Position numbers and translations under genes: made by a program. Below, in pieces: positions 9,269 through 10,723 of a stretch of DNA of 64,000 nt. Source of the stretch: Escherichia coli (GTDB taxonomy: Bacteria; Pseudomonadota; Gammaproteobacteria; Enterobacterales; Enterobacteriaceae); NCBI RefSeq assembly GCF_048403405.1, contig NZ_CP183129.1; one strand, written 5' to 3'. Position 1 is the stretch's first letter; every line of letters begins with the position of its first letter. Below the pieces are notes generated by a model. It made no database searches. It was not told where the DNA came from and was given only the letters and a program-made list of their open reading frames with translations.

Positions 9269-10723
9269 ATGTTAGTTAGTAAAAGCAACGAAATTAACAC
9301 TAGCACATTTATAAATAGTGGAAATTGTAATGAAAGAAAATCTTCTAAATCCATGGAGTTACTAGCTTATAGTATTATAAAATTAATTTGTAAAGAAGCT
9401 GCCTCAGGGACGTATAACGGTGCTCTTGAAATTTTACAAAAAATGATGTCTGAATGTAAATATCATGAAGGCAATGCTTTTGTCATTATGGGAGCCGGAG
9501 AACAATTAAAACGTATTAAATATGATGCTAATGAAAATAAATTAAAAGTATACAACGTACACTTTGATAATAATCAAGAGTTAGTTGCTGATGGTGAGCC
9601 TGACGTAGTATTTTTAAAAAAAACGGTGTGGGAAGACCTTCTCGTTAAACTAAAGCTGGAGAACAAAGAAAATGCGGTTTCTGAAATTAACCTGTCATCT
9701 AATAAAAATAATGTTGATCAGTTTATTGAATGCGCTAAGAGAAATGAACAGACCCTATTCGGCAATATAAGAAAAAGTGATTTTCATGTTGCTTCACTTC
9801 AGCCAGGTAGAACGCGTAGTGTTATTTCAGAAACGCCGCCAAATGACTGTATGGAATCACATAATTTATATGAAAACCACACAGATAAGGTTTCAACTGT
9901 AACTAAAAATTCTCAGCAAGTTAAAGGTCACTATGGAGATAAGTTGAAAGAAATGCAGTTGTTCCTCAACCAGATGAGCAATGCACTTCAACAGGATTCA
10001 TCTTTGTTAGAGTCAAAGGAACACACCATAGATATTCAAGAAAAAACGAATAAGTTTGTGCAGCATTTTCAGCGGGTATTATTTGATAAAAATGGAAGGT
10101 CATCAGAGTTTCTACTTAATTTTTATGAGTGTTGCTATAAGTTTTTACCAAGAGCGCAGCCTCAAGATAAAATCGATAGCTATAATTCAGCACTGCAAGC
10201 TTTTTCCATCTTTTGTTCATCTACGTTGACACATAATAATGTAGGGTTTAATTTCAAATTATTTCCAGAAGTCAAGCTGTCTGGAGGAGAGCTTGAAACG
10301 GTATTCAAATACAAAAATGGTAATTTTGTCTGGGAGATAGCCAGAATTAAAATTACTCTCCCAAAAGAAGAGGGTGGTTTATATAATTTACGTGGATTGG
10401 ATTTTAAGGGATGCTTCTTTTCTGGACAGAACTTCAGTAACTATGATATTCAATATGTGAACTGGGGAACGTCATTGTTTGATCTTGATACTCCATGTAT
10501 TTTTAATGCGCCTGCTTACAACAAGAGTAATGAAAAATCATTAGAACGCGTCAGCGAAAACGGTTTAAGTGGAGTCTTGTCTGATCGTAATAAAAAAATA
10601 AAACTAATCACGGGTGTGGCACCATTCGATGATATTTTATTTATGGATGATGACTTTGATGATAACTCCCCTGATGATGGTCCCGTTGAGAATAGTCCTG
10701 TTGTGAATAGTCCCCTTGTATGA
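9269..10723 (+). CDS. hypothetical protein (484 aa), AT-rich island cargo; no signal peptide; possible pentapeptide-like repeat segment; acidic C-terminal tail
   Basis: Long ORF with very low GC; N-terminus Ser/Thr/Asn-rich (MLVSKSNEINTSTFINSGNCNERKSSKS); segment LRGLDFKGCFFSGQNFSNYDIQYVNWGTSLFDLD; C-terminus DDDFDDNSPDDGPVENSPVVNSPLV. Family not recognised from memory. Confidence 0.6.
   Translation: MLVSKSNEINTSTFINSGNCNERKSSKSMELLAYSIIKLICKEAASGTYNGALEILQKMMSECKYHEGNAFVIMGAGEQLKRIKYDANENKLKVYNVHFDNNQELVADGEPDVVFLKKTVWEDLLVKLKLENKENAVSEINLSSNKNNVDQFIECAKRNEQTLFGNIRKSDFHVASLQPGRTRSVISETPPNDCMESHNLYENHTDKVSTVTKNSQQVKGHYGDKLKEMQLFLNQMSNALQQDSSLLESKEHTIDIQEKTNKFVQHFQRVLFDKNGRSSEFLLNFYECCYKFLPRAQPQDKIDSYNSALQAFSIFCSSTLTHNNVGFNFKLFPEVKLSGGELETVFKYKNGNFVWEIARIKITLPKEEGGLYNLRGLDFKGCFFSGQNFSNYDIQYVNWGTSLFDLDTPCIFNAPAYNKSNEKSLERVSENGLSGVLSDRNKKIKLITGVAPFDDILFMDDDFDDNSPDDGPVENSPVVNSPLV

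Follow-up and report, generated by a model that had tools for sequence, protein, structure and literature searches.

What kind of protein is encoded by the open reading frame (ORF) at positions 9269-10723 of a 64,000-nt stretch of the Escherichia coli contig NZ_CP183129.1 (hereafter the window)? A first-pass annotation could not place its product in any family and likened it to orphan secreted effectors or contact-dependent cargo proteins. We identify the ORF, from its sequence, as ypjCB of E. coli in undamaged form, and its correct label is ypjCB (intact allele) rather than a new effector candidate. The protein has been catalogued before in RefSeq, NCBIfam, Pfam, and UniProt (there as 'YpjCB-like C-terminal domain'), as an E. 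coli-only family with no assigned function, encoded by one of the species' 'y-genes'. What we add is descriptive in nature: the borders of the variable segment that carries the gene, a census of its null alleles, a contrast between its evolutionary rate and that of its neighbors, the mosaic structure of its alleles, and a usable model of its C-terminal module. The explanation we favor, to which we give an even chance, is that ypjCB encodes a real, dispensable, xenogeneically silenced accessory protein with a C-terminal binding unit and an N-terminal half and linker that change almost freely.

Identity of the ORF

The ORF starts with ATG and contains 484 codons; the features that define it are as follows.

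9257..9260, plus strand: Shine-Dalgarno-like GAGG, 8 nt upstream of the ypjCB ATG, read from the sequence
9269..10723, plus strand: coding sequence of ypjCB as an intact allele of 484 aa, including the stop codon (ORF list, NF050179, Pfam, RefSeq identity)

At the DNA level it matches ypjCB of E. coli MEI003 (product WP_000961342.1, 'YpjCB family protein') with 100% identity. The NCBIfam model NF050179 ('Ecoli_YpjCB'), which has a curated cut-off of 650 bits, matches with 962.2 bits, residues 1-484 aligning to model positions 1-465 of 465. Two Pfam families, DUF5507 (residues 1-160, E 9.5e-76) and DUF5508 (residues 234-484, E 3.3e-147), lie on this single polypeptide. These matches assign no function to the product, in keeping with the first-pass annotation, and it matches no housekeeping family.

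The same annotation had suspected that the ORF might correspond to the ypjB/ypjC locus of K-12, and it is indeed the same gene. The annotation of K-12 MG1655 treats ypjCB as a pseudogene that contains an internal stop, its pieces being ypjC and ypjB (b2650/b2649). Because K-12 splits one gene into two in this way, the separate DUF5507 and DUF5508 families are artefacts. Translation and allele alignment show that the K-12 allele has a TAG at codon 161, which splits it, has lost 35 codons in frame, and carries an 8-codon C-terminal extension. Compared with it, the window allele lacks the codon-161 TAG, retains the 35 codons, which are deleted in both the K-12 and the O157 alleles, and stops 8 codons sooner. 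There is no difference in kind between the window ORF and the YpjCB family, of which it is one allele.

The gene is poor in GC (34.4% overall, 29% at third codon positions) and uses rare codons, with ATA at 6 of its 24 Ile codons and 6 AGA codons, whereas gabD in the same window has zero ATA or AGA. The product is predicted to be a soluble protein of ~55 kDa that lacks a Sec signal or membrane segment. Its maximum Kyte-Doolittle mean over 19 residues is 0.87, which indicates no transmembrane helix or Sec signal, and its last 30 residues have a net charge of -9. These values, together with an N-terminus that is 47% Ser, Thr, and Asn, agree with the earlier description of a protein with a Ser/Thr/Asn-rich N-terminus, an acidic tail, and neither signal peptide nor transmembrane helix.

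Distribution and inactivation of ypjCB

A low-stringency blastn search of 5426 complete E. coli genomes detects ypjCB in 3077 and leaves 2349 without it. It is always chromosomal in E. coli genomes; the median genome has one copy, and no genome has it in more than two places. Among the best 120 of 426 matches in a collection of 5.8 billion proteins, the named homologues are all from E. coli or Shigella, and an exhaustive HMMER search of 1.84 billion representatives at 50% identity recovers one full-length YpjCB cluster plus fragments, its sole remaining matches being two artefacts inflated by repeats (see below). Neither these 1.84 billion protein representatives nor the genomes of 100,044 species yielded a genuine match outside Escherichia/Shigella. 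The lone match in a pattern scan of the latter (one genome per species) is to a 2.8-kb contig, DEQI01000374.1, of the metagenome-assembled genome 'Planococcaceae bacterium UBA3370'; it is colinear with window positions 8467-11376 at 90-95% identity, and we reject it as E. coli contamination.

A phage or plasmid origin can likewise be set aside: no phage record in INPHARED encodes ypjCB, and the plasmid matches are spurious or captured by an insertion sequence (IS). Three matches to PLSDB 'plasmids' of ~4.9 Mb are mislabelled chromosomes, while the IncHI2 plasmid NZ_MN732922.1 carries a 130-codon fragment of the K-12-type ypjCB beside IS1 copies, by which it was captured. There is also a 950-bit match to PHROG 30093; this family, whose function is unknown, is backed by no phage genome in INPHARED and probably derives from prophage-region predictions. 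Taken together, the searches identify ypjCB as a taxonomically restricted orphan for which they reveal no identifiable donor.

Intact alleles are diverse in length and widespread. They include alleles encoding 484 aa in MEI003, HSP60, and XJ6.1, 492 aa in KW21, 491 aa in PRO_A, 472 aa in GPEC856, and 457 aa in ETEC1747, as well as the 449-aa alleles with the 35-codon deletion found in strain 100181, O145, and O157:H7. Several intact YpjCB protein clusters are each seen on hundreds of contigs. An intact gene is annotated in 10 of 15 full-length sampled genome annotations outside K-12; the possibility that the ORF is a fused or frameshifted pseudogene, raised at first pass, thus does not hold.

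Disruption is also common. The K-12 stop is shared by four of five additional natural isolates with a K-12-type allele, and the exact 61-mer that includes the K-12 TAG occurs in 1236 genomes, compared with 340 for the CAG version. Other copies are disrupted by a stop at codon 119 (E50) or a frameshift (S1-IND-02-A), and in four genomes the gene is interrupted or truncated by an IS. Overall, ypjCB is missing from ~43% of complete genomes and present as the K-12 nonsense allele in 23%; the other third have different alleles, mostly intact. The gene is dispensable and is confined to part of E. coli, including Shigella.

Evolutionary signature

Rates were estimated by the Nei-Gojobori method from 11 ypjCB alleles, with glaH and the alpha-amylase-like gene, both of which lie near ypjCB in the window, as comparators. 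Among the 11 alleles the mean non-synonymous divergence (dN) is 0.103 and the mean synonymous divergence (dS) 0.155, a dN/dS of 0.67. Between the window strain and K-12, ypjCB has a dN/dS of 0.76, glaH one of 0.02, and the amylase-like gene one of 0.08, while dS is comparable in all three, at 0.14-0.22 (0.22 in glaH and 0.16 in the amylase-like gene). Because the synonymous divergence of ypjCB matches that of neighboring genes, its anomaly lies in the amino-acid rate. We also considered that ypjCB might be special in holding ancient balanced alleles, and rejected this since dS for the same pair of strains is equal or higher in glaH and the amylase-like gene.

Constraint is unevenly distributed along the protein. 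In windowed estimates from the 11 alleles, the ratio of non-synonymous to synonymous differences per site (pN/pS) is lowest at residues 281-340 (0.23-0.41) and residues 371-400 (0.13), and is about 1 or above at residues 1-30, 136-165, 181-223, and 341-370, reaching 1.4 at residues 181-223. For residues 1-30, pN is 0.163 and pN/pS 0.87. The alleles are recombination mosaics, with a minimum of 46 recombination events (Rmin) and all four gametes at 40% of informative site pairs, and the nearest-neighbor allele shifts from segment to segment along the gene.

Stop codons are nevertheless strongly avoided, even as non-synonymous change proceeds ~10-40 times faster than in the neighboring genes. As 4.5% of random substitutions in ypjCB would create a stop, the at least 437 mutations among the 11 alleles should have produced 19.5 stops; two are seen (Poisson P ~7e-7), and both sit in alleles annotated as pseudogenes (K-12 and E50). 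The intact alleles have lengths of 1350, 1419, 1455, 1476, and 1479 nt, all of which differ by multiples of 3. By this pattern ypjCB has been translated as an ORF through most of its past, weakly constrained outside its C-terminal core and repeatedly inactivated. As a bacterial gene that is young, taxonomically restricted, and fast-evolving, it makes a tractable object of study and opens no long-standing question.

The same signature, which is compatible with a role in conflict or niche interaction, could in part equally result from relaxed constraint. In that event ypjCB would be a decaying relic, functional at one time in the donor or in early E. coli but now effectively neutral and on its way to loss, whose dN/dS, pseudogenes, and absences reflect relaxed selection only. 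Consistent with this are the dN/dS of 0.67, near 1 across much of the N-terminal half, the occurrence of one nonsense allele in 1236 genomes alongside further independent stops, a frameshift, and IS insertions, the 43% of genomes that lack the gene, its probable silencing by H-NS/Hha (see below), and the lack of a homologue anywhere else. A purely neutral history is harder to reconcile with stops that are about ten-fold rarer than expected, with length changes among intact alleles that are all in frame, with the clear constraint on residues 281-340 and 371-400 (pN/pS 0.13-0.41), and with the persistence of intact alleles across many divergent lineages. Because part of the signature is equally compatible with relaxed constraint, we regard a pure relic as unlikely but as an alternative to be taken seriously.

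Predicted structure of YpjCB

We divide the polypeptide into the following regions, all on the plus strand.

9269..9358: residues 1-30, Ser/Thr/Asn-rich and highly variable N-terminus (47% S+T+N; allele alignments)
9359..9658: residues 31-130, alpha/beta region, DUF5507 core (Pfam; windowed pN/pS 0.38-1.12)
9659..10018: residues 131-250, hypervariable linker that bears in-frame indels and contains the 35-codon stretch and the position of the K-12 TAG (codon 161)
10019..10510: residues 251-414, conserved C-terminal module with three helices, a three-stranded beta-meander, and five-residue-spaced strands
10379..10498: residues 371-410, pentapeptide-type segment of ~7-8 pentads (register analysis, shuffle test)
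10511..10720: residues 415-484, tail predicted to be disordered, in which the motifs ITGVAPFD and MDDDFDD are conserved and the end is acidic and rich in Pro/Ser

The N-terminus stays rich in Ser, Asn, Thr, and Gly across alleles despite its sequence variation. For residues 31-130, the secondary structure comes solely from a low-confidence AlphaFold2 (AF2) model, in which the predicted local distance difference test score (pLDDT) is 35-48. A full-length AF2 prediction with 17 alleles has a mean pLDDT of 34.6 and is unusable. Residues 250-484 modelled alone are a different matter: the predicted template modelling score (pTM) is 0.65, and block-mean pLDDT is 68-91 over residues 250-409, with one loop block at 55 (residues 320-329), falling to ~50 by residue 414 and to ~30-37 from residue 420 on. 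Within this fragment, residues 370-409 (block-mean pLDDT 71-85) are modelled as short strands that recur every five residues. The C-terminal module is therefore predicted, with moderate to high confidence, to comprise a helical bundle, then a beta-meander, and finally a short solenoid of the pentapeptide type; the acidic tail beyond it is predicted to be disordered.

The resemblance of the C-terminal segment to repeat units, noted at first pass, reflects a real five-residue periodicity. Around LRGLDFKGCFFSGQNFSNYDIQYVNWGTSLFDLD, in one register, seven of eight pentads have a hydrophobic center and five of eight have a preceding D or N. The sliding score over eight pentads is 12 of 16, a value matched by 0.18% of 5000 shuffles (p ~0.002). 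A Foldseek search of the AlphaFold database gave, as its best match outside the family, a pentapeptide repeat-containing protein of B. thetaiotaomicron (E 7e-6, TM-score 0.38). No match to Pfam Pentapeptide (PF00805 and relatives) was found at E<=10 for the window allele or the 17 alleles, and in the PDB the fragment has no fold match, while a profile search brought up Qnr below threshold (E 3.2).

The pentads of YpjCB, most of them with a hydrophobic center and D/N just before that center, resemble those of Qnr/MfpA, which mimic DNA, and of the repeat domains in PipB2, the EspX family, and NleL. In such proteins tandem A(D/N)LXX-type pentads make up a right-handed quadrilateral beta-helix. 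Like Qnr/MfpA, YpjCB is acidic, overall and at its tail. However, the solenoids of Qnr/MfpA have at least eight turns while that of YpjCB has only about two, and it follows a helical bundle and a beta-meander, both of which are lacking in pentapeptide-repeat proteins.

Several other similarities were considered and rejected. Residues ~99-168 have some similarity to the NAD-binding domain of Gfo/Idh/MocA proteins, to which hhalign assigns a probability of 16%; the leads were PDB entry 3ezy at E 1.1 and a tandem dehydrogenase (P0164) whose E-value is inflated by four summed repeats. The match to a 3960-aa repeat adhesin (P0150) in 13 stretches is an artefact of repeat summing, and weak matches to Pfam OmpH, Ku_PK_bind, and FliS and to NCBIfam A1S_2505 (E 0.07-5) were disregarded.

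Regulation and reported phenotypes

A candidate promoter lies upstream of ypjCB.

8773..8801, plus strand: candidate sigma-70 promoter TTATCA-17-TTTAAT in the ileY-ypjCB spacer (pattern match, 0.07 expected by chance in the window)

Genomic SELEX (systematic evolution of ligands by exponential enrichment) located a constitutive sigma-70 promoter, TTATCA-18-TTTAAT, flagged HNS, between ileY and ypjC of K-12 (PMC3946193). The window promoter shares its hexamers with this one, from which we infer that it may also function in the window strain. In a Hha pull-down ypjC was enriched 4.6-fold, and its transcript was induced 9-fold (PMC2408971). Because the reported promoter in the spacer is bound by H-NS/Hha, ypjCB is probably largely silenced in laboratory growth.

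YpjCB belongs with the orphan proteins encoded on AT-rich, lineage-restricted E. coli islands, on segments associated with a tRNA or tmRNA gene, that are silenced by H-NS/Hha. With these it shares low GC, rare codons, reported Hha/H-NS binding at the promoter, location on a variable segment next to ssrA, patchy distribution, and frequent pseudogenization. This is a descriptive class and no functional family, and membership in it is uninformative on mechanism.

Deletion of ypjC in K-12 caused a modest rise in colonization of a commensal biofilm by enteroaggregative E. coli (EAEC) 55989, constitutive expression of ypjC had no biofilm effect, and a ypjC deletion in EAEC 55989 itself was unobtainable despite repeated attempts (all PMC3646849). 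The K-12 deletion phenotypes are hard to interpret because the K-12 ypjCB copy is a natural null.

Possible roles of YpjCB

If the favored explanation is right, the working part of YpjCB would be the conserved C-terminal module, formed by the three-helix bundle, the beta-meander, and about two turns of a pentapeptide-type beta-solenoid. As no catalytic motif or enzyme family was matched, this module most likely binds a partner and is not a catalyst. The partner could be a protein, or a DNA-binding protein engaged through mimicry, and the acidic tail (MDDDFDD...) may add a second, flexible contact. In the N-terminal half and linker, which are reshuffled by recombination and in-frame indels, rapid change would be either tolerated or selected. 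The variability of the protein, its independent inactivations, and the absence of the whole segment from many genomes would fit a niche-specific interaction or conflict protein with a value that depends on the environment. Functional work could be directed to the intact alleles of 449-492 aa, which occur in many lineages, and to residues 281-414, where constraint is concentrated.

Several observations weigh against this explanation. No stretch of ypjCB has a dN/dS demonstrably above 1 in the windowed estimates, and the overall value of 0.67 is also expected from simple relaxed constraint. The binding role is deduced from the fold type and from absent enzyme signatures; the pentapeptide assignment fails the Pfam model and extends over about eight pentads; and the N-terminal half has a pLDDT below 50 in the full-length model. 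The biofilm phenotype, moreover, comes from K-12, whose own copy of the gene is a truncated one.

A bolder version would make YpjCB an E. coli-specific polymorphic interaction protein with a new combination of folds (the helical bundle, beta-meander, mini pentapeptide solenoid, and acidic tail). An arms race with a target in a host, a phage, or a competitor would maintain the diversity of its alleles, and it would act either after secretion, as an effector, or inside the cell, as a decoy or sensor. We consider this rather unlikely; if it were true, the widespread null alleles of ypjCB would be adaptive losses.

Alternatively, YpjCB could be a type III effector, a substrate of the secretion systems encoded by the locus of enterocyte effacement (LEE) or by E. 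coli type III secretion system 2 (ETT2), with its Ser/Thr/Asn-rich N-terminus as the signal and its pentapeptide module acting in the host cell like PipB2, the EspX family, or NleL. The maintenance of N-terminal composition while the sequence varies would agree with this, as would the pentapeptide-type segment, repeats of this kind being documented in E. coli and Salmonella effectors (PMC3013003). The fast, mosaic evolution of the gene points the same way, and LEE-positive O157:H7 and O145 retain intact 449-aa alleles; like many effector genes, ypjCB is AT-rich and bound by H-NS/Hha. However, N-terminal composition alone is a weak predictor of type III secretion, the gene is common in K-12-type, commensal, and environmental strains, and no secretion or chaperone gene adjoins it. 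Its neighbors (the amylase-like gene, ileY, the recombinase remnant, the ypjA autotransporter gene, and ssrA) include none associated with type III secretion.

Contact-dependent cargo fares no better. No CdiA/CdiB, Rhs, PAAR, VgrG, or immunity gene is annotated within 9 kb of ypjCB; Pfam, NCBIfam, and PADLOC detect no toxin domain in the protein; and sequence and fold searches reveal no similarity to a known effector, toxin, or cargo of contact-dependent inhibition (CDI), Rhs, or type VI secretion systems (T6SS). Every test we ran of the effector or cargo proposal made at first pass, whether of homology, fold, neighborhood, or distribution, was thus negative or uninformative, and a type III effector seems to us improbable.

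Least probable of all, and very doubtful in our view, is a role in defense against phages or plasmids, for example as an orphaned relative of the LmuA effectors of Lamassu/ABC-3C systems located at an ssrA hotspot and engaged in an arms race with phages. The location of ypjCB on the ssrA-adjacent segment and its presence/absence pattern and fast evolution, which are typical of defense genes, are in keeping with this, as is a weak match to CTD4 (PF20280), a C-terminal docking domain (CTD) of ABC-3C/Lamassu effectors whose role has been described (bioRxiv 10.1101/2025.06.23.660979). The best match (i-E 0.0036, 17.3 bits) aligns residues 79-208 of allele P0084 to positions 51-179 of the 217-position model, covering ~130 residues and falling below any trusted threshold. 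Eight of 17 alleles match at E<=0.1; these are not independent evidence because they are close relatives, and the window allele has no match at E<=10. Furthermore, the CTD of LmuA is at the C-terminus whereas the CTD4-like stretch of YpjCB is in the N-terminal half, the reverse order, PADLOC reports nothing for the 11 ypjCB alleles, and no LmuB/LmuC or other ATPase gene neighbors ypjCB. For both the effector and the defense readings, positive evidence goes no further than composition or sub-threshold similarity, and both fail the tests of context.

The ssrA-adjacent segment

The first-pass annotation had placed the ORF in an AT-rich island beside tRNA ileY, and this placement is corroborated. 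The gene order is gabDT-lhgO-glaH, the amylase-like gene, ileY, ypjCB, the pinH remnant, a 39-codon ORF, ypjA, ssrA, and smpB. GC content falls to 32-39% in 1-kb windows across a trough at ~5.5-11 kb, while the flanking core DNA is at 50-59%. The relevant features are listed below.

4311-5288, minus strand: glaH, core gene
5488..16238, no strand assigned: variable segment of ~10.7 kb with the amylase-like gene, ileY, ypjCB, the pinH remnant, and ypjA; borders approximate
5625-7877, minus strand: alpha-amylase-like gene, intact, 750 aa, ~38% GC
8437..8512, plus strand: tRNA ileY, anticodon CAT (ARAGORN, Rfam, RefSeq)
~11083-11250, plus strand: serine-recombinase (pinH-type invertase) remnant, between ypjCB and ypjA
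~11474-11593, plus strand: conserved 39-codon ORF (WP_001120794.1), between ypjCB and ypjA
16394-16756, minus strand: ssrA, the transfer-messenger RNA (tmRNA) gene, with its 3' end abutting the variable segment

For the left border, a probe spanning the junction matches ~1300 of 5385 genomes on its glaH side only, and these matches end at window position 5487 (query position 788). Strain razor3, in which the segment is absent, has glaH and ssrA as immediate neighbors. The right border, according to a three-way alignment, falls just past the ypjA stop, and B2-like genomes lack the entire ~10.7-kb segment. From these border matches, the razor3 junction, and the three-way alignment, we conclude that ypjCB is carried as cargo by a variable segment that adjoins the tmRNA gene at its 3' end. 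Direct repeats were looked for at the ends of the segment, and none was convincing. The order of ileY, ypjCB, and the pinH remnant/ypjA is the same in MEI003, K-12, and ten further genomes. The segment that carries ypjCB is old, AT-rich, horizontally acquired, and located beside ssrA, and the presence of the pinH-type remnant and the 39-codon ORF suggests that it is the residue of an older mobile element.

The tRNA at 8437-8512 is called tRNA-Met(CAT) by ARAGORN and tRNA-Ile by RefSeq; the CAT anticodon of ileY is read as Ile after lysidine modification. This AUA-decoding tRNA gene and the ATA-using ypjCB, 757 nt downstream of it, lie on the same segment.

The intact amylase-like gene of the window has pseudogene counterparts with internal stops in K-12 (ygaQ) and in O157:H7 WS4202. 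Its dN/dS of 0.08 between the window strain and K-12 implies strong constraint up to the recent past. For the core gene glaH, the divergence from K-12 amounts to a dS of 0.22 and a dN of 0.005, and that from B2-like genomes to ~7.5% of nucleotides, which is unusually deep within E. coli, and the whole surroundings of the segment seem to carry old haplotypes.

At the other end, ypjA terminates only ~160 nt from the 3' end of ssrA (window positions 16233-16394). In K-12 the CP4-57 prophage lies between these two genes; it is absent from the window strain. Within ypjA, positions 15208-15309 contain a 12-nt periodic repeat that encodes the Pro-Asn/Asp-Pro-Lys linker of the autotransporter, and the gene is truncated or stop-bearing in some genomes (O145 RM8988, GPEC856). 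Other Rfam matches in the window, to naRNA4/CssrE, the Phe leader, RyfD, StyR-44, and a complete rRNA operon with tRNA-Glu (125-201, 34626-34751, 38057-38195, and 41193-46203), are ordinary E. coli content.

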